Translations under genes and position numbers: made by a program
Notes under the pieces: model-generated
Told to the model about the DNA's origin: nothing
The model's input: only the letters and a program-made list of their open reading frames with translations
Database searches by the model: none
From: a virus
Taxonomy: Duplodnaviria > Caudoviricetes
Virus record (IMG/VR): IMGVR_UViG_3300009472_000010
Span: 1-42,881 of that record
Direction: 5' to 3' (one strand)
DNA length: 42,881 nucleotides
In this document: positions 14,202 to 40,148 of the stretch, in pieces
Layout of the letters: every line of letters starts with the position of its first letter
How positions within the stretch are numbered: position 1 is the stretch's first letter

Positions 14202-15425
14202 TTACAAAGCTTGGTAGGTTAATTCACATATATTTCCCATTGTAGGATGTTGAATCTCTAATTTACCTGATCTCCTATTACCTACATATTTATTACTATA
14301 GTGATAATAATCAGTCTTACCTAAACTAGGAAGAGTCTTTTCTATGAACCCGGCTGTCTCATTAGAAGTCATATATTCCACCTTCCTATCTGTATGTATA
14401 TGACCTTTAAACAGTGTTCTATTAATAGTAGTACCCCATTCTCTTGGATACTCTGTAGCATATATTAGAGGATTGTTTTTACTTCTTTTATCTCCATGCT
14501 CAAATGCATTAAAATTATTATGCCATACATGAACTTTTCTTTCTTCATACTTAGTATCCCAAGTTATTTCATCACTATCAATTGATTTAGATAGTGCATG
14601 AACTAAATGAAAAGATGATAACCTATCATGATTACCTGGTACATATACTACTACTAAATCTTTACAAAATGCTTTTATATAATTGATAGCCCAATGCATA
14701 GCATCAAATGCTTGCACATAAGCCTCTGTAGCTGTCATACAGTTGTCTAAACCTGTTCCGCTAGTAGTAGTGCCCTCAAAGGTATCCATGTTGATTAAAT
14801 CACCTCCTACAACAAAGTACATTCTTTCCATATAATGCACTGGTGCAGCCTTACCTATCAAATATTTAATGGTATCTTCAAAATCTTTATCTATTGTATC
14901 ATTACCTTCTTTACCAAAATGTATATCCTGTAATGATATAACACCACATACAGGATCCAAATTATTACGTGATTTTAAATTAAACTTTGGAAGCTTGTGT
15001 TTTTTAGGTTCCCAAACATCCAATAAATTTTTAAAAAGATTTTCTTCTTGATCTTTTAGTTTAGTAACCAATGCAGATACTCTCCAGTGATCACCCATTT
15101 GTTTATTCCAATACTGTGATAACTTCCACTTATCTGTATCAATTTTAAGTAGTTGTATAATTTCTTCTGCACTTTTAGGTTCATGATCAAATGTACCTGA
15201 TATCTTTCCTTCTCCTTTATCTAAATCTATTGATTCTACAAGCTGTGAGTTATCAGCAGCTTTATGAAAGAACTTACTTCTTTTTCTATCTTTTTTTCTT
15301 TCATGTAATACTTCCTTTTTAATTCTTATATAATCATCTTCATCCATGTCACAACGTTCAGCAGATATACTACTATTCTTTTTCCATTTCAGTGAGTTGA
15401 TTACTTTCTGTTTTAGAATGTCCAT
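14202..15425 (-). CDS. Calcineurin-like metallophosphoesterase
   Basis: Ordered motifs DIHFG, GGDLIN, PGNHD, HGD, GHIH. Confidence 0.85.
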   Translation of the reverse strand: MDILKQKVINSLKWKKNSSISAERCDMDEDDYIRIKKEVLHERKKDRKRSKFFHKAADNSQLVESIDLDKGEGKISGTFDHEPKSAEEIIQLLKIDTDKWKLSQYWNKQMGDHWRVSALVTKLKDQEENLFKNLLDVWEPKKHKLPKFNLKSRNNLDPVCGVISLQDIHFGKEGNDTIDKDFEDTIKYLIGKAAPVHYMERMYFVVGGDLINMDTFEGTTTSGTGLDNCMTATEAYVQAFDAMHWAINYIKAFCKDLVVVYVPGNHDRLSSFHLVHALSKSIDSDEITWDTKYEERKVHVWHNNFNAFEHGDKRSKNNPLIYATEYPREWGTTINRTLFKGHIHTDRKVEYMTSNETAGFIEKTLPSLGKTDYYHYSNKYVGNRRSGKLEIQHPTMGNICELTYQAL

Positions 15426-15453
15426 ATGCTAATTTATTTTTGTATAAAGATAT

Positions 15454-15489
15454 AAAAAAAAAAGAGACTGGGGTAATACCCAGCCTCTC
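15454..15489 (-). terminator. Intrinsic terminator
   Basis: AGAGGCTGGG-TATTAC-CCCAGTCTCT followed by about 10 T. Confidence 0.85.
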
Positions 15490-15490
15490 C

Positions 15491-15529
15491 CAACGTTTGC
15501 AGTAGAAAACCAACAAACCACTACAGTTG
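15491..15529 (-). ncRNA. Candidate structured RNA hairpin with 12-nt loop UUUGUUGGUUUU
   Basis: CAAC-UGUAGUGG / CUACUGCA-(AAC)-GUUG stem, which needs G-U pairs and so forms only on the minus strand; directly 5' of the terminator. Confidence 0.4.
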
Positions 15530-15537
15530 TTTTTTTG

Positions 15538-16098
15538 TTATACAGCCAGTGTAGAAAATAATATTTCTATTGGTTTACATCCTGACCCTATGCTACTATC
15601 TACTACTTTAACTTTATAAGCAGTACTAGCTACTAAATTTGTTATAGTGTAATTTGTAATTGTTGTTACAATAGGTGTGCTATTTGCTAATGTCCATCCT
15701 GTTGGAGCAACCTGAGTATCATAATAAATATTAATACCCGTGCTGTTAGCCCATATACCGTTCCATAATATGTTAGCTGTTGAACTTGTAACTTCACCAG
15801 CAAATACATTATATGGATCATGTGCCACATCTTCTGAAGTACAAGTACCTAATCCGTTTGCAAATATTAATGCAAACTTTTGAATTATAGCATCAAGTCT
15901 ATCACCAGATTTAATCATTATTTGTGCACTTGGATCACCTATCTGAAAAGTAGTACCACAATAACTTACACATGCTGCACACTGAATGTCATCACATCTT
16001 TCACTTCCTATACTACAATCAGTGTAAGAACATGGATTAGTTAATGCTGTGTCAGCACAGCTACATTTACTACTACATTTTGTACAATTACATGCCAT
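15538..16098 (-). CDS. Cys-rich virion protein with C-terminal FN3-like domain
   Basis: 11 Cys in the first 47 aa; VTSSTANILW...YTITNLVASTAYKVKV is an FN3 signature. Confidence 0.7.
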   Translation of the reverse strand: MACNCTKCSSKCSCADTALTNPCSYTDCSIGSERCDDIQCAACVSYCGTTFQIGDPSAQIMIKSGDRLDAIIQKFALIFANGLGTCTSEDVAHDPYNVFAGEVTSSTANILWNGIWANSTGINIYYDTQVAPTGWTLANSTPIVTTITNYTITNLVASTAYKVKVVDSSIGSGCKPIEILFSTLAV

Positions 16099-16113: not shown

Positions 16114-18357
16114 TTATGAACAACCTGCTATTATCTCAGAAGAAATCACTGATGGATCAGAACTTAAATTCCAATTTCCTCCAGTCTGTATTGATAATTC
16201 TTTCCAAGGGAATATTTGTGTCCCATTTATGTTTCCGCTCATACCAGCTCCTGATCCGCAAACAAAGTATTTTACTCCATTAGTATTTGCATCAGCAATC
16301 ATTTGTTGTATTCCTGACCATACAGGTGGTACAAAGCTATCATATTGACCTCCTGGTAAATTATCAGTTATTATAATCACATATTTAGCAACATTAGCTC
16401 TAAGTACTCCAGATAAATTTGAAGATCCAACTATCAATTGAGCTGCATAATCTGTTGGCTCAGGAACGTTCATACCTTGTCCAAGATTTACACATGTTCC
16501 ATCTACACCACCATCAAGTTTATTTAATTGAGTAGTAAAGCTTGTTCCATTATTTGTAGCAAACTGTTGCCAAGAAGTAATATATTGATATGTTCCTGAT
16601 GGACTAGCAGATATTACTTTTTGTGCAGAAGGTAAACCTGAATAATCTGCACATCCACTATATACTGGTTGTGGTTGTAGATACTCATCTGCAGTAACTA
16701 ACGCTAATCTATAATCATTTGCACCTGATGCGGTATCTATAGTATTTACTAAACTTGAAACACCAGCTTTAATAGCACTAATTTGACCGCCCATAGAGCT
16801 TGTGTAGTCTATTATAAATGCTACATCCATCCCATCTGTACATGGAGCACTTGCAGTAGTAGTAGTAAATAATGTGTCAATACAATTTGTATTAGTTTGA
16901 CCATCTATTTCTATATCTATTTCTACTTTGTATTCTGTGCTTGCAGCTAATCCAGTTACTGGCTGCGTTATTGAAACTCCAGGATTATTAACTGTATAAG
17001 TTTGTGTTGTAACGCCAGTTGAAACATTTACTACTCTTATTGTATAAGTAGCTGTTGTTCCTAATGCGTTTGAAATATTTATTGATGCTTCTGTTTGTGT
17101 CACTGCCGTTATTAATACTGAAGTTGGACAAGGAATAATCCCTGTTATTGTTGAACCAATTCTATCCTCACATGTGTTAGTACCATCTGTTACTGAAAAA
17201 TCAATTAAAATAGATAAATCTCCAAATGTATTTAATGTTGGAATAGCAAAGTTAAATCCTCCTGGAGAACTTTGTAATGCAGGTACATCTACTGTAGCAG
17301 TAACTGATACATTATCATCATCAGTAATAGTGATCACACTAGCACCCACTGAACTGTTAAAAGTTCCTGGAATACTTGAAGCATTAAAGTCAAAATTAAT
17401 TGATGCAATTATGCCTGCTGCATTTAACGTAGAAGTTGCTGTATATGCAAAAGTTACTGAATCACATCCTGAAGGACAACAGTTATCTTGTATTGCTGAA
17501 ATAGCACTATACATATCATCTATTACTACCCAAGCATTTTGCATGGATTGTGCTAATGTAGATGGAGCATTATTCCAACCTGTAAAACTTCCATAAGAAG
17601 TATTAGGTAAAGTTAATGATGCTGACGTTCCTTGTATTGTTGTTTGTGATATTGCTGAATTAATAGCAGCTGGTAATCCTACTGCTGTCTCTAAAGCACA
17701 AAATCTAGCTTCAAGGGCTAGAAGTAATACAGAAACATCTGTCAAGTTTCCTACATTAATTATACAAGTTGGTATAACTTGTTTCTCTGCAACTACACCA
17801 GAACATGGTAAAACACATGCTTCTAAAGTAGATATTCTAGTATCATAACTAGTAAGAGTTGTATTTATAAGTTGAATACTTTGTAGGTTAGTACATACCT
17901 GTTGAGCTATTAGAGTAGCAAACTCATCCAAACGTAGTTCAGTAACAGGATTTCCATTAGCATCATTGTATTGTAAACAAGCAGGTAACACCATCATTGG
18001 TAGATTACTTTCTACTTGTGATTCTGAACTCAACCTAGATGTTGGTTGAGGCACTTGACCTGTACCAGTATTATCACATATTTGAGTAACCATTGCCTGT
18101 AAAACAGGAACTAATGTAGTAGGTGTAGTACCTTGTATATTAAGACATGTCAAATCTAATCCTGATAAATTTGGATTAGCATCAACACCATTGGTAATCA
18201 TATCACATACCTTTGTAGCTAATTTTGCTGTTACGTCACTAATAGAATCACCATTGCATAAATCTATGCAGCTGATATCTGGCCCTTGCCATATAACGCA
18301 ATTAGATGATATATTATTACATCCGTTTGTTGTGGCACTTGAATTTGTTGGAATCAT
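16114..18357 (-). CDS. Cys-rich virion protein with coiled coil, FN3-like and C-terminal vWA domain
   Basis: N-terminal CVIWQGPDISC; VTGLAASTEYKVEI (FN3); MDVAFIIDYTSSMGG (MIDAS-like DxTxS) ... VIIITDN. Confidence 0.75.
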   Translation of the reverse strand: MIPTNSSATTNGCNNISSNCVIWQGPDISCIDLCNGDSISDVTAKLATKVCDMITNGVDANPNLSGLDLTCLNIQGTTPTTLVPVLQAMVTQICDNTGTGQVPQPTSRLSSESQVESNLPMMVLPACLQYNDANGNPVTELRLDEFATLIAQQVCTNLQSIQLINTTLTSYDTRISTLEACVLPCSGVVAEKQVIPTCIINVGNLTDVSVLLLALEARFCALETAVGLPAAINSAISQTTIQGTSASLTLPNTSYGSFTGWNNAPSTLAQSMQNAWVVIDDMYSAISAIQDNCCPSGCDSVTFAYTATSTLNAAGIIASINFDFNASSIPGTFNSSVGASVITITDDDNVSVTATVDVPALQSSPGGFNFAIPTLNTFGDLSILIDFSVTDGTNTCEDRIGSTITGIIPCPTSVLITAVTQTEASINISNALGTTATYTIRVVNVSTGVTTQTYTVNNPGVSITQPVTGLAASTEYKVEIDIEIDGQTNTNCIDTLFTTTTASAPCTDGMDVAFIIDYTSSMGGQISAIKAGVSSLVNTIDTASGANDYRLALVTADEYLQPQPVYSGCADYSGLPSAQKVISASPSGTYQYITSWQQFATNNGTSFTTQLNKLDGGVDGTCVNLGQGMNVPEPTDYAAQLIVGSSNLSGVLRANVAKYVIIITDNLPGGQYDSFVPPVWSGIQQMIADANTNGVKYFVCGSGAGMSGNINGTQIFPWKELSIQTGGNWNLSSDPSVISSEIIAGCS

Positions 18358-18398: not shown

Positions 18399-18420
18399 CT
18401 ATACATTAATAATATACAAA
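18399..18420 (-). promoter_or_regulatory. Promoter-like motif TTTGTATATTATTAATGTATAG
   Basis: Matches 28005-28024 and 34820-34840, including the downstream TATAG. Confidence 0.6.
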
Positions 18421-18463
18421 AAATTTTAAAACCAAACAAACAATGCTCGGTTTTAAAATTTTT
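18418..18463 (-). terminator. Long AT-rich hairpin, probable terminator
   Basis: AAAAATTTTAAAACCGAGCA / TGTTTGGTTTTAAAATTTTT inverted repeat downstream of the 18489 stop. Confidence 0.55.
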
Positions 18464-18488: not shown

Positions 18489-18749
18489 TTAGGCTACTAC
18501 TTCTGCATTTTCTTCTACTTCAGATAATGTACCGTCTTCTAAACTAATATTAACAGATCCATATTTATCCTCCAATGCAGTTGTAGTATCTTTCCATTCT
18601 GCTTGAAGCTCAGTATGTCTTGCACACAATGTATTTTTTACTAATTCAGCATTACCTATATTCATCAACAACGTGTTGATTTTTTGTTGAAGATCTTTTA
18701 CATCTTCTAGCTCTTTCTTAGTGAGCTTTTTTGCTTTTGATTTTGCCAT
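18489..18749 (-). CDS. Small coiled-coil protein, possible fibre assembly chaperone
   Basis: Heptad pattern ending LEDKYGSVNISLEDG; adjacent to fibre genes. Confidence 0.55.
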   Translation of the reverse strand: MAKSKAKKLTKKELEDVKDLQQKINTLLMNIGNAELVKNTLCARHTELQAEWKDTTTALEDKYGSVNISLEDGTLSEVEENAEVVA

Positions 18750-18781
18750 TTGACTTTGGTTTTAAATATATTAATATAATT

Positions 18782-24196: not shown

Positions 24197-26620
24197 TTAT
24201 ACTACCTTCATTATTATAAATTTCAGGCTATTTGCAGTAATATTATTTGTCCAACTAAAATCAACATTACCACTAGTAGTGTTATATTCTGTTTGAACTT
24301 TTACTTCAAAACCACCTGCATTGTATACTTGCGTAATAAATGGTCCTGTACCCAACCCGTGTGTTCCTGCTGTTACTGTAAAAGAACTAGTTGCCGTTGC
24401 TGGTCCACTAGCCACATAAGTTCTTTTTTCAAGATGAACTTTTAAAGTAGCTGGTGATACAAACAACTGTTGTCCTGCTGTACCCGCATCTACTTCTGAT
24501 TGAGTTGCTGTTTCAGCTACACCTCGTGCACCATAAGTTGAATCAGGTAACGTTCTTGTAGAATTAGCTGTAATAACACCATCAGTCATTGTTAATGTAT
24601 CAATTACATCAACACCTGAAGTATCTATATCTGAGTCAGTACCAATAATTTTATTAAATGTACTTGCTAACTGAGCATCACTAATACCACCTGCTTTAAT
24701 TGTAATAAAACCATTAACTGTTCCAGCAAAAGAAGCATTACTAAATCCAGCAACACCTTTTTCAGTTGCCCCATCTGTTGCACCTACACCAGCAATATTT
24801 TGATCTTGAATTACTACCGTATAGTCACTTAATGAAGGTGAAGAACTTCCTGCTATATCTGAATTTGCAAATATTAAGTCTCCTACTTCAAGTGATTCTG
24901 TAAAGAAGGTTCCGTCTTGTGTTACAACATAAAAGTCACCTTGTGTTAATGCCACATTGTTTGCTCCTGTTAATACAGGATTGTTTGTTGATGCATTATA
25001 TCCACCTTGGAATACACCTACTCCAGCTACTGCAGATTGCATTTGTGCTAAATTAACAGCATCTGTTCCAGCTGTACCAGTTGCAAGGCCAGTAATTTTA
25101 TTATTTCCTAACGCTATATTATTATTTGGTACACCTAATACGTCAAGTGGTATATCAACTATAGCAGCCTTTTTAACAGCTCCTGCTGCACTATCATCAC
25201 CAATTAAAATTAGATCATCTGCCTCTGCAAAGCCTGACATTCCACCAGCATCACCAATAATACCTGTTGCAGAATAATCTACTGCAAGTGATCCTGTACT
25301 TGTTATAGTACCACCTGTAAGACCTAAACCACTTCCTACACTTGTTACACCATCTACTGGTAAAGTAGCAAGTGTTAAGTTACCTAAGATTACTTGTGAG
25401 GCAGTACCTGCTCCAGCAATGTTTATATTTCCATCTGCTATAAGAGGTGAATTTGTAATTGTAAGAGCATTACCAGTTTCTGTAATACCAACACTTGTTA
25501 ATCCTGTGTTTGTATCTGTAGCCCATGCTGGAAGACCATTACTATCTACTTTTAATACTTTACCTGTTGATCCTATAGCTATTTTAGCTAATGTTGATGT
25601 ACCAGAAGCATATAGTAAGTCTCCTGCTGTATAACTAGTTAATCCAGTACCACCATTATCTACGTCTAATGTACCTGACATTGTCATAGTACCACTAGAA
25701 GTAATTGGAGAGTTATTAAAGGACATTCCAGTACTACCACCACTTACACCTACTGAAGTTACAGAACCTGCACCCGCATTAATATAAGTTGCTACTTGAG
25801 ATAAGTTTGCAAATTTAGCATTGCTATCTGAAGCATCAGAAAATATTACTTTATCAGTTCCTGCTAATGTAACAGATGTTCCATCTGCTGCCGCTAATAC
25901 AACGTTATCTGTACCTGCATAATCTACTGCTAATGTTCCTGAAGAAACAATTGTACCACCTGTTAAACCAGCTCCAGTTCCTATAGAAGTAACTGTACCG
26001 TCTTTACCAAAACCAGGCATATTAGAAATAAGTGATTTTCTTAATGTATTACTATCACTTACATCTGAGAACCAAACATAATCAGTTCCTACTGGATCTG
26101 CAGCAGTTAATACTTCAATTGCATTATCTGTACCTACAGTATCAATATTAACTGTTGGTGTTGTAGAAGGAGAACCTGTAATTGTTATACCAGTTCCTCC
26201 TGTTAAAGAAGTAACTGTACCAACATTATTTGTAGCATTTGTTGTAACTGTAAGAGTATTTGATGATCTGGTTACGGTTAAGGATGCTGATGCTGTACCA
26301 TTACCTTGTATTATTACATTATCAGCTACACCATCGTTATCTATTAATTGGATGCCTGCTGTTCCATTAGCACCACCTACACCAAATAGTTCATAAGTTG
26401 TATTAGAATCTGATCCAGTTGTAAAATCTACCCATGCTCCATTTGCACGGAGTCTCATTTTGTCTGTGCTAGAATTGTAATAAATCTGACCATCTCCTAG
26501 CAAGCTAGCACCAGTTGGATCTGCAGTTTCATTTTGAATTCTGGCGTTCTTGAACGTACCCTGGTTGATAAGCGTGATATGCCCATCAACTTGAATACCT
26601 GCTAAAAATTGTATTGCCAT
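24197..26620 (-). CDS. Tail fibre protein, paralogous to 19752..24107
   Basis: Same MAIQF N-terminus, GTVTS/TLAVDY repeats, GTDAVNLAQ motif, C-terminal THGLG domain. Confidence 0.8.
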   Translation of the reverse strand: MAIQFLAGIQVDGHITLINQGTFKNARIQNETADPTGASLLGDGQIYYNSSTDKMRLRANGAWVDFTTGSDSNTTYELFGVGGANGTAGIQLIDNDGVADNVIIQGNGTASASLTVTRSSNTLTVTTNATNNVGTVTSLTGGTGITITGSPSTTPTVNIDTVGTDNAIEVLTAADPVGTDYVWFSDVSDSNTLRKSLISNMPGFGKDGTVTSIGTGAGLTGGTIVSSGTLAVDYAGTDNVVLAAADGTSVTLAGTDKVIFSDASDSNAKFANLSQVATYINAGAGSVTSVGVSGGSTGMSFNNSPITSSGTMTMSGTLDVDNGGTGLTSYTAGDLLYASGTSTLAKIAIGSTGKVLKVDSNGLPAWATDTNTGLTSVGITETGNALTITNSPLIADGNINIAGAGTASQVILGNLTLATLPVDGVTSVGSGLGLTGGTITSTGSLAVDYSATGIIGDAGGMSGFAEADDLILIGDDSAAGAVKKAAIVDIPLDVLGVPNNNIALGNNKITGLATGTAGTDAVNLAQMQSAVAGVGVFQGGYNASTNNPVLTGANNVALTQGDFYVVTQDGTFFTESLEVGDLIFANSDIAGSSSPSLSDYTVVIQDQNIAGVGATDGATEKGVAGFSNASFAGTVNGFITIKAGGISDAQLASTFNKIIGTDSDIDTSGVDVIDTLTMTDGVITANSTRTLPDSTYGARGVAETATQSEVDAGTAGQQLFVSPATLKVHLEKRTYVASGPATATSSFTVTAGTHGLGTGPFITQVYNAGGFEVKVQTEYNTTSGNVDFSWTNNITANSLKFIIMKVV

Positions 26621-26665: not shown

Positions 26666-27205
26666 TTAATTTAAAAAAGCACACCCTGCAAATGAATTAC
26701 TAAATGATACTCTTATTTGGTTAGTAGATAAATAATCTATATCACCTATCACTACATTATTATCTAAGTCAGCTATTGTTACTGATGGATACTCCCCTAA
26801 ATTATGTGTTATTGTCCATACCGCAGCAGCTATCTCAAAACACTGTACAAACGTTGCTTCATTTGCAAGTATATCTGCTAAATCTAATACTGTACATACA
26901 TTAGTAGGAACAGCCGGACAAGATACACTTGCCTTTACATTTATTTTTGCCAATGGCTCAACAAATACACCTTTATCTTCTGTTGCAACAACAACCTTAT
27001 CTGATTTTTTATCTAACCAATCACATAATTCTTTTTGTAATACTGCATTAGCAAAATCAGTATAACAACATGCTTCAATACCAAACTTAACTTCTTTAAA
27101 GTTTGCATATGCTTGGTTAGCAAAAGTCTGTTCTACTCTTATTCTTTTTTCAAGAGCCACATGCTTTACTTGATTTGCATTTGATATTTCTCTAGGTTTA
27201 CCCAT
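26666..27205 (-). CDS. Virion protein, possible fibre hub/connector with C-terminal WTITHNLG domain
   Basis: WTITHNLGEYPSVTI...GDIDY...FAGCAFLN is a common fibre-associated module. Confidence 0.55.
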   Translation of the reverse strand: MGKPREISNANQVKHVALEKRIRVEQTFANQAYANFKEVKFGIEACCYTDFANAVLQKELCDWLDKKSDKVVVATEDKGVFVEPLAKINVKASVSCPAVPTNVCTVLDLADILANEATFVQCFEIAAAVWTITHNLGEYPSVTIADLDNNVVIGDIDYLSTNQIRVSFSNSFAGCAFLN

Positions 27206-27386
27206 TTTTTAAATTCACTATTTGTTGTTTAGCAAGTTCTAAAGATAAATTTCTACTACCCTCTGTAGCTTGTTGTTTAGCTTTAGATGAGTTTTTACAT
27301 CCTTTGCAAATTACATTTCCATTTTCATCATGTGTCTTTTGACATCCACACGTAAATTTTTTTCCACATACTGAACAGTTATTCAT
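27198..27386 (-). CDS. Small Cys-rich, probably Zn-binding protein
   Basis: CSVC...CGC...CKGC; AAAACCAA leader; overlaps the next gene start. Confidence 0.6.
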   Translation of the reverse strand: MNNCSVCGKKFTCGCQKTHDENGNVICKGCKNSSKAKQQATEGSRNLSLELAKQQIVNLKNG

Positions 27387-27398
27387 AATTCTTTGGTT

Positions 27399-27980
27399 TT
27401 ATACGTAATACATTCCTCTCTTTGCTGATCCACAATTTCCAGTTGGACAAGTAATCTTATTTAATCTGGCTTTTGCATAATTATATATTTGCATAGCTTG
27501 AGTTGTAGATTGACAATATTCTGCATTTGAAACGGCAGCATCAATCATTGTTTTTATATAACTCATTTCAGCTAATAATTCTTGTTTCTCAGAATCAGGT
27601 TGACAGGGTTGTACATCTAGATCACACAATACTTCATAGTATTGTCCAAGTAATTGTGTAACTCTTAGATGATTGTATTCTACGTATACCTTTGAATTAG
27701 GTGATACACTGTATCTTATGATATATATACCATCAGGTATATTTTCTTGTTTTGTACCACAATCCGTGGTTTGCAAAGCAAGTGTACATGCCGTTAAACA
27801 CATGTCAAAATCTTTATCAACCTTAATTAAAACAGGTACAGAATAGCCAGGTAAAGTAATTAATAACTCTTCACAATCAACTGCTAAATCCTTTGAATAT
27901 TGACTTGTATCTTTTATGCAAAGTAAATTACAGTTAGATACTGTAGGTATTTCTAAACTTAATATATGTCTGTCTGCCAT
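27399..27980 (-). CDS. Putative tail hub protein
   Basis: IKDTSQY...L.ITLPG...IPDGIYIIRYSVSP; position after the gene-73-like gene as in crAss-like phages. Confidence 0.55.
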   Translation of the reverse strand: MADRHILSLEIPTVSNCNLLCIKDTSQYSKDLAVDCEELLITLPGYSVPVLIKVDKDFDMCLTACTLALQTTDCGTKQENIPDGIYIIRYSVSPNSKVYVEYNHLRVTQLLGQYYEVLCDLDVQPCQPDSEKQELLAEMSYIKTMIDAAVSNAEYCQSTTQAMQIYNYAKARLNKITCPTGNCGSAKRGMYYV

Positions 27981-30415: not shown

Positions 30416-31432
30416 TTAAGCATTCCAATATGGTTCAACTTTATCCATTAGAGATAATAAACTTTCTTCATTTTTAGGATCCATTAAAAAATCTAAACAT
30501 TCAGACGGTCTTTTACCCATTCTAATACCACTATCCATTGGCTCAATCCATCCCCCTGCTTTAGTCAGTAAGAATCTATAAAATAAACAGTCTTTAACAA
30601 GTGCTCTTATTTTTATTTCCTCCATACTTAATGTAGAAACATCTAAAAAGTTTTGTGCTGCTTTTTTCTTATTACCTTCAGATCCATGACCTTGAATATA
30701 GTCATCCATATTTTCATACATAACATCATTAGGAGTAGACTTACTATACTGTGTGCTATTTGAATCACAGATTTTAGCTACATACATAAGCTTTGTTGCA
30801 TTGCCATCATACATTTTTTGTAATTCTACTAATGCTCTATTTCTTATTTTACTAAGTTCAGTTCTAGTAGTTAACGTTTCTTCTAACGTATCTAAATAAA
30901 ACTTAACTCCTTTAGAGTTTACTTTAGCATCTTTTAATGACTTTGCTACTATAGAAAAGCCACCTGCTTTAATGGCATATAGTTTAATTCTATCATATGG
31001 ATCTAATTCTGGATCTAAGAATACTGGATCATTACCACATCTTAAACTAATCTTGTCCCAAAATTTATCATTATTAGGACTCATAATAGTTAAGTTGTTC
31101 CAAAAATCTTTGTCTTCTGGATCAACTACATTAGCTGCAAGAGATGCTTCTAATTCTGCAACTACAGTTCTAATTTCTTTAATCTTTGCTTTTTTCTCCT
31201 TAGGTGCTAACATTTTTACTTCAGGTGCAAATTCATTTAAACCAGTAACATATCTTTTTACTCCATTCATCTCTAGACATGCTAATGATTCTTCATGGTA
31301 TACTCCATCATGTAATGCCAATCCATATTGTTCCAATCCCATATTTTCTTTATTAGGATTAAAAAATGGACGCACTGCAACAGATTGTTTTTTTTCCTGC
31401 TGATACTTTTCTACAATAGTGTACTCACTCAT
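30416..31432 (-). CDS. crAss gene 75-like conserved protein
   Basis: YVTGL, FW..ISL.....FLDP..DPYD motifs; follows MCP. Confidence 0.6.
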   Translation of the reverse strand: MSEYTIVEKYQQEKKQSVAVRPFFNPNKENMGLEQYGLALHDGVYHEESLACLEMNGVKRYVTGLNEFAPEVKMLAPKEKKAKIKEIRTVVAELEASLAANVVDPEDKDFWNNLTIMSPNNDKFWDKISLRCGNDPVFLDPELDPYDRIKLYAIKAGGFSIVAKSLKDAKVNSKGVKFYLDTLEETLTTRTELSKIRNRALVELQKMYDGNATKLMYVAKICDSNSTQYSKSTPNDVMYENMDDYIQGHGSEGNKKKAAQNFLDVSTLSMEEIKIRALVKDCLFYRFLLTKAGGWIEPMDSGIRMGKRPSECLDFLMDPKNEESLLSLMDKVEPYWNA

Positions 31433-31466
31433 TTTTTTTGGTTTTAAATTAATAATTATTATTCAC

Positions 31467-33484: not shown

Positions 33485-34789
33485 TTAAATTCTTTTAAAA
33501 ATGTTGTTAGCTCTTGGTATTTTTCTTTTAGCAGTTCTTTTAGCAGTTGGTTCTTTATCCTTAACTCCTAAAGATGTAGACCCTCCACTATTAGATTGTT
33601 CTGTTTTAAGTTTTCTTACCGTTTTCTCTATAGTTTTTTGAGCACCCTTATCCATTATTTTTGCTTTGTATCCTTCTGGATCTTGTAGCAACCATAATGC
33701 TTCAGATATCAAACCATAGTTTGGCTCAACAAATTGATACTTTTCAAGGAGATGTCCAAGTAAGTTAGTATTCTTACCACTAACTGATGGATAAGCGGGT
33801 TGTACCAAACCATTATAAAGCATAGCTTGTGTCTTCTTATCTATCTTAACATCATTTATAGAACCCCCTTTCAAAGTCTCATATACGTTTTTCATATATT
33901 GCTGTGATGCTTGTTCTTGTTGTTTCTTTTTAAGCTCTTGTTCTTCTAGCTTTCTTGCAACAACCTTTTCTTGCATCTTATCTAATTTTGGTTTAAACTT
34001 CATTGCTTGTTGTTCAAGCTTACCTAAGTCTTTCCAAATTTCTATTTCCTCAGCAATTTCTTCAGTAGTACCATATCCTGTTGCAGATAAATACTCTGTG
34101 ATAATTCTTTCTTGATCATTTGACTTCTTAACATCTAATGATCTATTTTCTTCTACTTGTGATAACGTAGCAAACATTCCTTTTAAATCTTGACCACCAT
34201 CTGCTACATAACGTGCAGCAATTTGTAATTCTTGTGGTAAGCTTTCAAAAAACTTTTTAGGAGTTTCTCTTCTTACTTCATTAGCTTTTTCTTCTAAGTT
34301 AGCTTGAATTAATTCTTCCCAGTCTTTAGCAGAATAATCTTCTAATTCTTTGTCATCATCAAAAGGAACAATCTTATCTTCTTTAATAAGCTTACTAAAT
34401 ACATCACTTATTCCAGAAATCTTTTTCCTTCCTCTTTTTTCTATTTTCTCTTCTTCAGAGTCTTCTTCATCAATACTGCTGATTACATCATCAATATTAA
34501 CTTCTTCTTTAACTTCCTCAGCTTTTACTTCTGGTTCAGCTACTTCTTTTTCTGTGCTAGATTCTTCTTTAGAATCAGCTTTTACATTTAAATCATCTTT
34601 GTCATCTACATCTGGATCAGCAAAAGACATGTCTGTTTTTGACCCTGTACCTGAAAAAATGTTCTTGTTTGGTTTTTCTTCCTGTGGCAAAGTAACATCA
34701 GCTGCACTAGGTGCTGCATCAAAGATCTCATCTAAGTTTATGTCTAATGTTTCTACTTTACTATTCACAGATTCAGTTTTAGTACTCAT
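33485..34789 (-). CDS. Acidic scaffold-like protein (crAss gene 77-like)
   Basis: Glu/Asp-rich N-terminus, coiled coil, basic tail; between portal and MCP. Confidence 0.65.
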   Translation of the reverse strand: MSTKTESVNSKVETLDINLDEIFDAAPSAADVTLPQEEKPNKNIFSGTGSKTDMSFADPDVDDKDDLNVKADSKEESSTEKEVAEPEVKAEEVKEEVNIDDVISSIDEEDSEEEKIEKRGRKKISGISDVFSKLIKEDKIVPFDDDKELEDYSAKDWEELIQANLEEKANEVRRETPKKFFESLPQELQIAARYVADGGQDLKGMFATLSQVEENRSLDVKKSNDQERIITEYLSATGYGTTEEIAEEIEIWKDLGKLEQQAMKFKPKLDKMQEKVVARKLEEQELKKKQQEQASQQYMKNVYETLKGGSINDVKIDKKTQAMLYNGLVQPAYPSVSGKNTNLLGHLLEKYQFVEPNYGLISEALWLLQDPEGYKAKIMDKGAQKTIEKTVRKLKTEQSNSGGSTSLGVKDKEPTAKRTAKRKIPRANNIFKRI

Positions 34790-34819
34790 AATATTTGTTG
34801 GTTTTAATATTAGTAATCT

Positions 34820-34840
34820 CTATACATATATAATATAAGA
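34820..34840 (-). promoter_or_regulatory. Promoter-like motif TCTTATATTATATATGTATAG
   Basis: Variant of the recurring motif, upstream of the scaffold-MCP unit. Confidence 0.55.
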
Positions 34841-37684: not shown

Positions 37685-39877
37685 CTATTTAATATTTTTA
37701 AAACCAGACCTTCTTATTTTCTGACCACCTAATGTTCTCCTACGGCCTATATTTTTAAACGCACTGGTATACTTTAATTTACTTATTTTTTCTGAATTTA
37801 CCAAAGAATCACCTTCTGATTCACGCCTTTTGGCATAACCTCTATTAGATTGTTGTATTTTGACAAAAGCAACCAACGCTCCAAACGTAACTAACCTATC
37901 CACGTTAAGACCTGGATAATATGCTAACATTTCTTTTATAAGCATTGGATCTGGTATTCTTTCAACACCTAATGTTTGTGACATAACATTACCTTCATCA
38001 TCTAATTTTTCATCTATTGCTTCTCTTATAAATTCTATAGCATAAGAAATTAAATGGCTCTTAAATAACGTTCCTGTATTTTTCCAACCGTATTCTTGAT
38101 ATACTGTTCTGTTAGATCCTAAATCTTTTAAGAAAAGTATTTGTTGCTTTGGCACTAAATATCTTTGTTTTTTTCTTGCTATCATATGTTGAATAAATAA
38201 TGATATATTATTCTCAACAATAGTCCAAGCATTATACCACTCTATAATTAATTCAAGTCTTTCATGTGTTTTATTAATATCATCAAACCTTCCACACCAA
38301 GCAGCTACTATCTTATCTCCTTCTACAAATACCTCAGTATCACCTGATACGGTTGTTCTAGTTACCTCAGTAGCATTTTTATATATGAATATACTACACA
38401 AAGAATCAGATGTAGTTGTTTTACCTTCTGATACAGGGTCAATAGAACCATAGTATTGGCCAAATTCCGGACGTTTACTAGCAGGTCTTTCCCACACTAC
38501 TATAGTTCCAGTTTTATCTGTCATTTTTTTATTTACGGGGAATTCAGTAATTGGTGCCTTGTTAGTTCTTTTAGCCACTATACCTTCTTGATCTCTATCT
38601 AATTCAATTAGCTCATATGCATATTCTTTTTCTTCTATCTTTTTCATTTGTTTAGATAAAATACCTTGTGGAAATACAGAAGCTTTTCTATATGCAAATG
38701 CTTCTGCTATGTTTAAAGGTTTCTGAGATATTCTTAATTGATATTGTTCAGGTCCTAATTCTGCTTTCCATCTTTCTCTTTCTCTTACAATAGCCTCTAT
38801 AGCTTCCTCAATTTGTGAATTACCCCAGCTATCAATGTATGGTGGCATTGACCATTGCTCAGGAATAAATAATCCAGCCATTCCTATAGTGCCTTCTGCA
38901 TCTATAAGGTTAGTTTCTACTGCATATATATCATTGGCAGTAGGATTCATTATCATTTCTTTTAATGGGTTACATTGTTCTAAATCACCCACAGATCCTG
39001 CAGCAATAAACATACCTGTTGTCATCATACCTGAAGACATTGCAGGACGCAAGTACTCATACGTTTGCATCATCTTAGGGGCAATACCTGCTTCCTCATG
39101 AAAGAAATAAGTAGTAGGTCCACCTACACCAGATGTAGCATTCTTTTCAAATGATGCACCTTGTATCTTTGACTTTAATCCTCTAGATGTTTTTCTATTA
39201 CCTACTTTAACTTCTATTTGCTGTTGCCATAAAAGAACTTTCTCAGGATTACTTGGCCTATACCAAGCTGTATGTTCATTAAGAAAAGTTTTATATTCAT
39301 CTAAAAACTTCCAAGAACCTTTATCATTTATATAATCTTTTAATGATGCACCAATCTTACATGTACTACCTTCTTCAAACCAATAGGTATTTATAATCTT
39401 TCCCATATGAAAATATGAAGAAGCTATCTGACGTTTTTTAAGTATAGCTGAATGCTGATTGTTTAACTCTGCAAGTATTTCATACAATGCCATGTGATAT
39501 TGTGCATCACGTACTTTGGCAAACCCATATTTTTTTTCTTCTTTATCAAAGATTGGTAAAAAATTTAACCACATATAATAGTCTCTGGTAAGATACCAAA
39601 TCTTATTATTATTTTTATATATTACCCCTTCTCTACATTTATTTTTTTGGTCATCCCAGTATGCCATAAAATCCTTTGATCTAAAAGGAGAACTACAATA
39701 CAAACCTTCTTTATTAAATCTCCTTGCTTCAGCATTAAATATTAAACTTGTTTCATCAAATTCATACTTGCCAGGTTCTTTAAATATCTCAAAAATAAAC
39801 TCATGAAAATCTTCATCATTAGAAAATTCTGTAGATGTCCAATTATCATTTTCATATGTAGGTATAATCCTACTCAT
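37685..39877 (-). CDS. terL: Terminase large subunit
   Basis: KKRQIASS (Walker A variant), FFHEEAG (Walker B), YYGSIDP, VENN and NVDR nuclease motifs. Confidence 0.93.
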   Translation of the reverse strand: MSRIIPTYENDNWTSTEFSNDEDFHEFIFEIFKEPGKYEFDETSLIFNAEARRFNKEGLYCSSPFRSKDFMAYWDDQKNKCREGVIYKNNNKIWYLTRDYYMWLNFLPIFDKEEKKYGFAKVRDAQYHMALYEILAELNNQHSAILKKRQIASSYFHMGKIINTYWFEEGSTCKIGASLKDYINDKGSWKFLDEYKTFLNEHTAWYRPSNPEKVLLWQQQIEVKVGNRKTSRGLKSKIQGASFEKNATSGVGGPTTYFFHEEAGIAPKMMQTYEYLRPAMSSGMMTTGMFIAAGSVGDLEQCNPLKEMIMNPTANDIYAVETNLIDAEGTIGMAGLFIPEQWSMPPYIDSWGNSQIEEAIEAIVRERERWKAELGPEQYQLRISQKPLNIAEAFAYRKASVFPQGILSKQMKKIEEKEYAYELIELDRDQEGIVAKRTNKAPITEFPVNKKMTDKTGTIVVWERPASKRPEFGQYYGSIDPVSEGKTTTSDSLCSIFIYKNATEVTRTTVSGDTEVFVEGDKIVAAWCGRFDDINKTHERLELIIEWYNAWTIVENNISLFIQHMIARKKQRYLVPKQQILFLKDLGSNRTVYQEYGWKNTGTLFKSHLISYAIEFIREAIDEKLDDEGNVMSQTLGVERIPDPMLIKEMLAYYPGLNVDRLVTFGALVAFVKIQQSNRGYAKRRESEGDSLVNSEKISKLKYTSAFKNIGRRRTLGGQKIRRSGFKNIK

Positions 39878-40148
39878 CTCTTATGATGGCATATACATCA
39901 CCAAACTGTAACAACAAATGCTCTTCACCATTATGAGGCATTGGTGTTGGCATAGCATGATCTGCATAATGCACTACATCTCCTATTTGTATTTCTTCTA
40001 CTTGATCTCCTTTACCTACAACAACCCCTTGAAATGTCTTTTTCTGAGCCATTTCTGGTAAATATAATCCTGATGCTGTCTTAGTCTCAGGTTTAATTTC
40101 TTTAATTAACAGTTTTTTTCCAACTGGTATAATTACTTTGTTTTTCAT
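39870..40148 (-). CDS. groES: Co-chaperonin GroES (Cpn10)
   Basis: IPVGKKLLIK...KTASGLYLP...GVVVGKG...IQIGDVV...LLL...DVYAII. Confidence 0.92.
   Translation of the reverse strand: MKNKVIIPVGKKLLIKEIKPETKTASGLYLPEMAQKKTFQGVVVGKGDQVEEIQIGDVVHYADHAMPTPMPHNGEEHLLLQFGDVYAIIRDE

Follow-up and report, generated by a model that had tools for sequence, protein, structure and literature searches.

Several described systems come close to the locus considered here, each being summarised from the available part of its source. In Vibrio cholerae, OppZ and CarZ are RNAs located at the 3′ end of operons, a layout shared by the present element and in which pairing is predicted to inhibit translation (PMC7398697). 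The C4 RNA of phages P1 and P7 is, like the present element, a structured RNA encoded by a phage; C4 is processed, and its loops pair with phage mRNA (PMC5320573). In Bacteroides thetaiotaomicron, GibS relies on seed pairing at initiation regions devoid of a Shine-Dalgarno sequence, as is predicted here (PMC7366714). Finally, Cluster K mycobacteriophages carry start-associated sequences (SAS), a phage-private oriented motif found a few bases before the starts of a subset of genes, as is the leader motif described below; the partner of SAS is left open in the part of the paper at hand (PMC3203893).

The present locus lies in a 42.9-kb virus record, the whole of which (42,881 nucleotides) is hereafter called the window. 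The minus strand carries all the large genes, i.e., those for the terminase, the portal, a 434-aa protein, the major capsid protein and virion/tail proteins. By capsid and portal comparison, the nearest named relatives are Lbo-JY46 (29–31%), Cellulophaga phages phi17:2 and phi4:1 (25–26%) and csAssE-Sib. Crassvirales portals are 21–24% identical to that of the window, with Lbo-JY46 (31%) and Lightbulbvirus (26%) being closer in percentage identity. The named relatives and the A-rich leaders point to a Bacteroidota host, and Bacteroidota largely do without Shine-Dalgarno pairing. The GTDB matches are eight MAG contigs carrying eight unrelated labels and are therefore uninformative on the host. 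Lbo-JY46 (L300, PP438436.1), the closest named relative, has a recorded cyanobacterial host, yet its leaders are A-rich and lack Shine-Dalgarno motifs, and the label may be wrong. Another record, the 246-kb G056 (L456, L463), contains two capsid genes and two different elements and is probably the product of two genomes joined during assembly.

Structure and conservation of the hairpin-terminator element

The element occupies the intergenic region between g186 and a nuclease gene, and its parts and neighbours in the window are the following.

14202–15425, minus strand: metallophosphoesterase/nuclease gene downstream of the terminator, used as a synteny marker (gene calls, synteny)
15452–15491, minus strand: intrinsic terminator hairpin and U tract (terminator scan; double changes in 9 of 11 pairs)
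15491–15529, minus strand: lower 4-bp helix CAAC/GUUG below the bulge (98.2% of cells paired; double change in 1 of 4 pairs)
15498–15525, minus strand: upper helix bearing the loop, 8 bp in the window vs. 7 bp in the consensus (100% of cells paired; double changes in 4 of 7 pairs)
15506–15517, minus strand: 12-nt U/G loop, predicted seed, with core UUGGUUU (conservation; predicted unpaired probability 0.84)
15538–16098, minus strand: g186, an fn3-like protein gene whose stop codon directly precedes the element (synteny)
16114–18357, minus strand: g747, a VWA-domain protein gene, first of the unit that ends in the element

The minus-strand RNA of 15454–15537 folds at −30 kcal/mol (z −4.07), and 0 of 200 shuffles are as stable. 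An earlier reading of the sequence alone (the sequence-only reading) had described a 12-bp stem closed by a 12-nt loop and directly followed by a strong terminator. The hairpin and its loop are as described, the terminator was recovered by the terminator scan at 15491–15460, and the stem is made of 8 bp, a 3-nt bulge and 4 bp rather than of 12 continuous pairs. The element begins within ~10 nt of the g186 stop codon and finishes in the terminator, which corresponds to a 3′-UTR layout sharing the intrinsic terminator of the operon, and the loop is predicted to be open in this context (median unpaired probability 0.81). Rfam 15 gives no match at the gathering threshold in the window, relaxed matches falling far below (e.g., 25.5 vs. 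59 bits), and C4 is absent among the matches, relaxed ones included. RNA data consist of three runs with 6–8% of words present, used as contigs only and at a depth below 8; one contig from a relative spans the element with both ends loose and does not reveal RNA ends or strand. Just past the terminator, at 15426–15451 on the minus strand, lies a TATMTTTR-type motif resembling the Bacteroidota −7 box, which is found before 78 of 125 nuclease starts and suggests that the nuclease gene is driven by its own promoter.

Relatives provide most of the information on the element. Exactly one copy of the 12-nt loop is found just upstream of the nuclease gene in 80 of 80 loci (the best 80 of 119 relatives); these loci were fetched via the downstream nuclease, and four of them, identical to the window in that gene, are hence not independent. 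The sets of relatives used were the best 80 of 119, the best 80 of 308, the best 80 of 318 and the best 80 of 184. The loop does not vary across 56 distinct copies, except that three of them have one U more, and its core TTGGTTT is present in 65 of 67 diverse copies. In the stems, 97.9% of cells are paired and 14 of 22 pairs are changed on both sides, with 0 of 500 shuffles as high, and slid-structure controls pair at 42–61%. The upper helix is paired in every copy, the lower helix has other arm sequences in distant copies (by eye), and G-U pairs make the minus (sense) strand the better-folding one in 59 of 67 copies. All 105 pattern matches in IMG/VR adjoin g186 or the nuclease gene, and a terminator-like hairpin comes next in 118 of the 119 evaluable metagenome matches. 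A distant search places a core-matching element at the same position in 78 of 80 loci among the matches listed (68 of 80 by the scanner, plus 10 of the 12 misses by an anchor search, the remaining two having short flanks).

Altogether, the conserved loop and covarying stems, which the sequence-only reading had proposed to look for in related phages, were found there, and across its homologues the element is a conserved structured RNA. It is a genuine and deeply conserved phage RNA family, apparently undescribed, of widespread uncultured aquatic phages. No description of it was found in the literature within reach, which mostly leaves out subscription journals, and the terms "small RNA" and "non-coding" are absent from the available part of a Crassvirales review (PMC10136315).

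The element extends to cultured phages. In phi17:2, an 11-bp stem of unrelated sequence carries a U-rich loop with the UUGGUUU core and is followed by a terminator, right after the gp047 stop codon; phi4:1 is identical to phi17:2 at the element, and Lbo-JY46 has a variant element upstream of its nuclease homologue. In the window and in the Lbo-JY46 and phi17:2 stretches alike, a generic scanner finds one and only one such element. The covariance model scores three members of the Lbo-like branch at 36–37 bits, and phi17:2 (24.5 bits) and Lbo-JY46 (25 bits) at the level of an ordinary terminator, so that homology for these two rests on layout, core and position and not on score.

A complementary tag in the leaders of probable assembly genes

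The sequence-only reading had noticed that the loop is complementary to leaders of the phage's own genes. The exact 12-nt complement, AAAACCAACAAA, does occur once on the minus strand, at 34805–34794, 4 nt before the scaffold ATG at 34789, and AAAACCAA does stand before the starts at 18749, 27386 and 31432. The near-match AAAACAACAAA before 29574 is also present in the sequence, but is conserved in 0 of 19 distinct leaders, and the 29574 gene was dropped as a target. The sites kept are listed below.

34794–34805, minus strand: predicted main target, a 12/12 complement at −16 to −5 of the scaffold-position gene (33485–34789), duplex −13.0 kcal/mol
31438–31445, minus strand: predicted target, AAAACCAA before g338 (30416–31432), a conserved post-capsid gene
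27393–27400, minus strand: predicted target, AAAACCAA before g62 (27198–27386), encoding a small Cys-rich protein
18756–18763, minus strand: weaker predicted target, AAAACCAA before g86 (18489–18749)

Among distinct leaders, AAAACCAA is found in 21/21 at the scaffold position, 19/20 for g338, 21/44 for g86 and 0/21 for the capsid gene, and AAACCAA in 21/22 for g62. The full 12-mer is present in 11 of 21 distinct scaffold leaders and, judging from these sequences, the functional seed would be the 7-nt core, not all 12 nt. Across 67 diverse genomes, AACCA precedes the scaffold gene in 64 of 67, the post-capsid gene in 41 of 58 and the capsid gene in 2 of 67, with its first C at −12 to −9 in 51 of 64 cases; the scaffold leaders of G006 and Lbo-JY46 lack AAACCAA. 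The motif is therefore oriented and lies a few bases before the start codons of a fixed subset of genes, AAACCAA being found near the start of 3–5 of 103–135 ORFs in five close genomes and of 0–10 ORFs in ten genomes overall. The target leaders are predicted to be mostly open (unpaired 0.68–0.80). Duplexes at the secondary targets are predicted at about −7 kcal/mol, near the value of the unconserved 29574 site (−6.7). Two further tagged genes were seen in relatives: a relative matching the window's genes has a fifth one, of 97 aa, further upstream on the same strand (G001:C1:40170-40463, L269), and the leader of the phage GroES gene (39870–40148, minus strand, in the window) carries AAACCAA in 8 of 27 distinct relatives and not in the window, so that this gene may join the target set in some lineages.

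The tag is absent from the operon that encodes the element, AAAACCAA being found in 0 of 45 g747 and 0 of 57 g186 distinct leaders. Nor is a conserved partner in cis seen: of 67 copies, 4 have an AAACCAA in the 220 nt upstream and 1 in the 200 nt downstream, and the AAACCAA inside g186 is not conserved. As features kept across relatives, both a cis partner and an antiterminator were rejected. An accessible loop complementary to conserved sites in the start regions of target genes is what would be expected of a trans-acting seed, and the loop is predicted to be one.

Low complexity had been recognised from the outset as making chance a real alternative. Within the window alone this caveat keeps its force: three matches at ≤1 mismatch compare with 0.82 expected, 7 of 100 shuffles reach three, and the case for complementarity beyond chance is weak. 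For the hairpin itself, chance is excluded by its conservation in relatives. Ranking of leaders in ten genomes and shuffling of the loop both indicate that equally good matches are rare in composition-matched controls. When the leaders of ten genomes (93–166 ORFs) are scored against the cognate loop, that of the scaffold gene comes at rank 1, 1, 2, 1, 1, 2, 1, 2, 1 and 6, and so is first or second among 93–159 ORFs in nine of the ten; shuffled loops attain these ranks in 0–6 of 60 cases. Among 5000 loop shuffles, a set that included the true order (expected ~23 times), 59 give a 12/12 leader match, 18 of which also match four leaders by 8 nt; only the real loop order appears to give both.

The predicted targets seem to serve head assembly. 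The 434-aa gene sits between the portal and capsid genes, and its model is helical with a disordered N-terminus. This model fold-matches proteins whose length fits the gene at the same position in phi17:2 and phi14:2, and matches named scaffolds at an E-value of about 0.03 only; position and modelled fold make it a probable capsid scaffold. Scaffold proteins are required in many copies. In phi14:2, the folds of the scaffold and g338 models are matched by proteins with the lengths of g092 and g090, respectively; these two genes flank the capsid gene, and neither bears the virion MS/MS note present on its neighbours. From these annotation notes on their counterparts, the targets look like assembly helpers that would not stay in the virion. 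BLAST gave no link of g338 or the scaffold to named phages, the links coming from the fold search against viral models, and PDB and Atlas searches gave no name for g338. The scaffold model also matches, with an E-value of 1e-6, a ProJPt-Bp1 gene annotated as a VIP2-family toxin (L575:12765-13919) and located just before the probable capsid gene, an annotation that is probably mistaken. Several relatives (L382, L386, L543-L553) have 300–1100 extra bases between the scaffold and capsid genes, an insert that holds an ORF of ~225 aa in G007 and G011.

Seven outgroup phages, few of them independent lineages, were read in part (crAss001, ~98 of 103 kb; csAssE-Sib, 90 of 151; phi14:2, 33 of 100; Fpv20, 29 of 90; IAS, 32 of 100; ProJPt-Bp1, 42 of 100; cr60_1, 42 of 100), and the stretches read contain neither the element nor the tag on scaffold and post-capsid genes. 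One of them, phi14:2, and phi17:2 infect a common host species. A design of this kind built on a different loop was sought in crAss001 and csAssE-Sib, and nothing was found in the stretches covered. The scaffold-position and post-capsid genes of crAss001 have GGAG-containing, Shine-Dalgarno-like leaders (L398:22062-22101, 24850-24891); the post-capsid leader can fold a small hairpin around GGAG, and that of IAS virus is similar (L574:29784-29818). In crAss001, another code may mark these two genes.

Proposed mechanism and alternative explanations

Two further features connect the unit that ends in the element to its predicted main target.

18402–18416, minus strand: promoter-like motif before g747, common to the scaffold gene (putative function)
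34823–34837, minus strand: promoter-like motif before the scaffold gene (putative function)

These are the only two minus-strand occurrences of the motif in the window, and a looser version precedes 44 of 80 g747 and 51 of 91 scaffold starts. A second TTTGGTTTT is found in an A/U hairpin (18419–18463, minus strand) just upstream of the g747 promoter-like motif; it recurs in several relatives and may be an upstream promoter box.

The reading that we favour, with a probability of about 0.55, is a delayed repression of the scaffold and helper genes by a co-transcribed 3′-end RNA whose loop pairs in trans with the AAACCAA leaders. We infer co-transcription, release of a discrete RNA, pairing and the regulatory sign in the following form. 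The g747-g186 unit and the scaffold-capsid unit would be transcribed together from the same promoter-like motif, and the 3′ end of the former would accumulate as a stable fragment of ~80–90 nt or act while still on the mRNA. The exposed loop would then pair with the tag and mask positions of about −16 to −5, a region in which upstream adenines would be read by Bacteroidia ribosomes. Adenines at −3, −6, −12 and −13 matter for initiation in Flavobacterium, according to the available part of PMC13000457, and GibS, in the portion of PMC7366714 at hand, acts as a repressor in a Bacteroides host through pairing at the start regions of its targets. Since the duplex would cover adenine positions and GibS-type pairing at starts represses, repression is favoured by analogy over activation. 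The resulting circuit would be an incoherent feed-forward loop in which the scaffold and non-virion helpers are throttled while the untagged downstream capsid gene is still translated, the throttling setting the scaffold-to-capsid ratio or its timing. The earlier proposal that a 3′-UTR-derived RNA could regulate a gene set through a shared leader motif is supported in part, the motif being conserved on a fixed set of genes, from which 29574 falls out.

Whether loop and leader pair at all can be approached through their co-evolution, which the sequence-only reading had suggested following. Element/capsid pairs numbered 72 at first, to which the window and two named phages were added; dropping duplicates and L427 (no scaffold start) left 67. 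The capsid tree omits L051 and L457, and L401 and L402 have no capsid region. The 7-nt core is nearly invariant on both sides, so compensatory change cannot test it. At the flanking position, a loop G faces a leader C in 27 cases and another base in 26, and a non-G loop base faces a C in 1 case and another base in 13. On the capsid tree this trend amounts to four independent pairs with none opposite (p 0.5). Predictions were fixed before the leaders were examined: in the clade with an A in the loop, 6 of the 10 distinct genomes bore them out at the proximal site, and those for L418, L426, L431 and L440 failed. Single cases that fit loop-leader pairing well are L317, L311, L412 and L405. Compared with the window loop, a variant loop does better on its own leader in 5 of 20 cases, worse in 10 and equally in 5. 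Co-evolution is thus found as a trend at the flanking position, with p 0.5 and four failed predictions against it, and the compensatory evidence for pairing is weak.

These data leave some room for an explanation without RNA-RNA pairing, in which the loop serves protein binding or stability at the 3′ end of the mRNA, AAACCAA is an independent leader signal, and their complementarity is a coincidence of low complexity. The four failures speak for it, as does L431, in which the U run of the loop is changed and the leaders are not. So does a mild excess of both motifs in host-type DNA: of 78 host terminators, 4 are separated from the stop codon by a stretch containing TTGGTT vs. ~0.45 expected, which keeps a protein-binding explanation alive, and AACCAA is mildly enriched in host leaders (13 of 344 vs. 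3.8 expected). Against it, a leader C stands opposite a non-G loop base in only 1 of 14 cases, and the cognate duplex is stronger than expected, with a residual of −0.61 kcal/mol that lies beyond all 5000 permutations (kinship uncorrected). Moreover, element and tag are jointly absent from the outgroup stretches read, and the host U/G stretches seen are not set in such a hairpin. Of these host TTGGTT stretches (L747 of G114; L579 and L586 of G083), two follow neighbouring small proteins with signal-peptide-like N-termini. The covariance model found the full element in none of 61 host genomes of one family, in which it gave one strong match on a 2.7-kb phage-like contig and two weak matches without the hairpin. 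On balance, an explanation without pairing appears unlikely.

Pairing may also be real and have the opposite sign, the RNA acting as a trans-acting initiation guide or leader shield that boosts scaffold and helper synthesis in a host with ribosomes indifferent to Shine-Dalgarno pairing. The conservation data are the same for activation as for repression, the tag keeps a narrow Shine-Dalgarno-like spacing (the −12 to −9 placement in 51 of 64 leaders), RNA and target seem to share a promoter-like motif, and a scaffold is needed in many copies. However, the target leaders are already predicted to be mostly open (0.68–0.80), so that hardly any unfolding would be required, the upstream adenine positions would be masked by the duplex, and the Bacteroidetes precedent, GibS, is one of repression in the available text (PMC7366714). 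Activation is accordingly rated as quite unlikely. A bolder form, in which assembly-helper leaders are tagged by a phage-private translation code and one RNA loop serves as an initiation guide replacing the Shine-Dalgarno pairing lost by host ribosomes, kept across capsids only 25% identical, is very doubtful.

It is highly improbable that the RNA chiefly targets host mRNAs with AAACCAA leaders, phage leaders being secondary. Among sampled host-type ORFs, the motif precedes 2 of 168, 4 of 158 and 8 of 344 (1.2–2.5%, Flavobacteria-type), a rarity that argues against a general ribosome signal, and phage small RNAs acting on host genes are known (available part of PMC12197685). Yet no set is apparent among the host genes sampled (in ~0.77 Mb of host-type DNA), and the near-fixed tag on the phage scaffold gene would be left unexplained. 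That the two motifs are one double-stranded DNA site, bound by a protein in either orientation, is scarcely credible: as duplex DNA the two motifs have the same sequence, another inverted copy is found at 18428, immediately before the promoter-like motif of g747, and in crAss001 the positional counterpart of g338 bears a DNA-binding annotation, but G-U pairs and compensatory changes mark a single-stranded minus-strand RNA fold and the tag keeps its orientation and spacing to start codons.

Significance and comparison with known systems

Should repression by the 3′-end RNA be confirmed, head assembly in a large lineage of mostly uncultured aquatic phages would turn out to be controlled at the RNA level as well, one 3′-end RNA setting the amounts of scaffold and helpers apart from that of the capsid protein encoded just downstream. 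The element bears on RNA control of translation in Bacteroidota and offers a candidate partner for a start-associated phage motif. The layout is carried by the cultured phages phi17:2 and phi4:1 and is therefore directly testable.

The differences from the described systems, stated within the available part of each source, are the following. OppZ and CarZ are released by RNase E and autoregulate their own operon (PMC7398697), whereas the parent genes of the phage element are untagged (0/45 and 0/57) and those it is predicted to target are different genes of the phage. C4, a three-stem-loop RNA matured by RNase P, controls lysogeny and immunity (PMC5320573), in contrast to one interrupted hairpin with a terminator and a complementarity to assembly-gene leaders. 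GibS is a host intergenic small RNA with a 5′ single-stranded seed and metabolic targets (PMC7366714), whereas the present seed would be the loop of a hairpin in the 3′ UTR of a phage transcript. The SAS motif is G/C-rich and spans 13 bp (PMC3203893); it is unrelated to the 7–8-nt A/C tag found on ~3–5 genes in the closest genomes and, unlike SAS, this tag has a complementary RNA loop encoded in the same genome. From its sequence relationships, the element likely works as a trans-acting antisense RNA, whose nearest counterparts are the 3′-UTR small RNAs by layout, C4 by origin and SAS by target tag.
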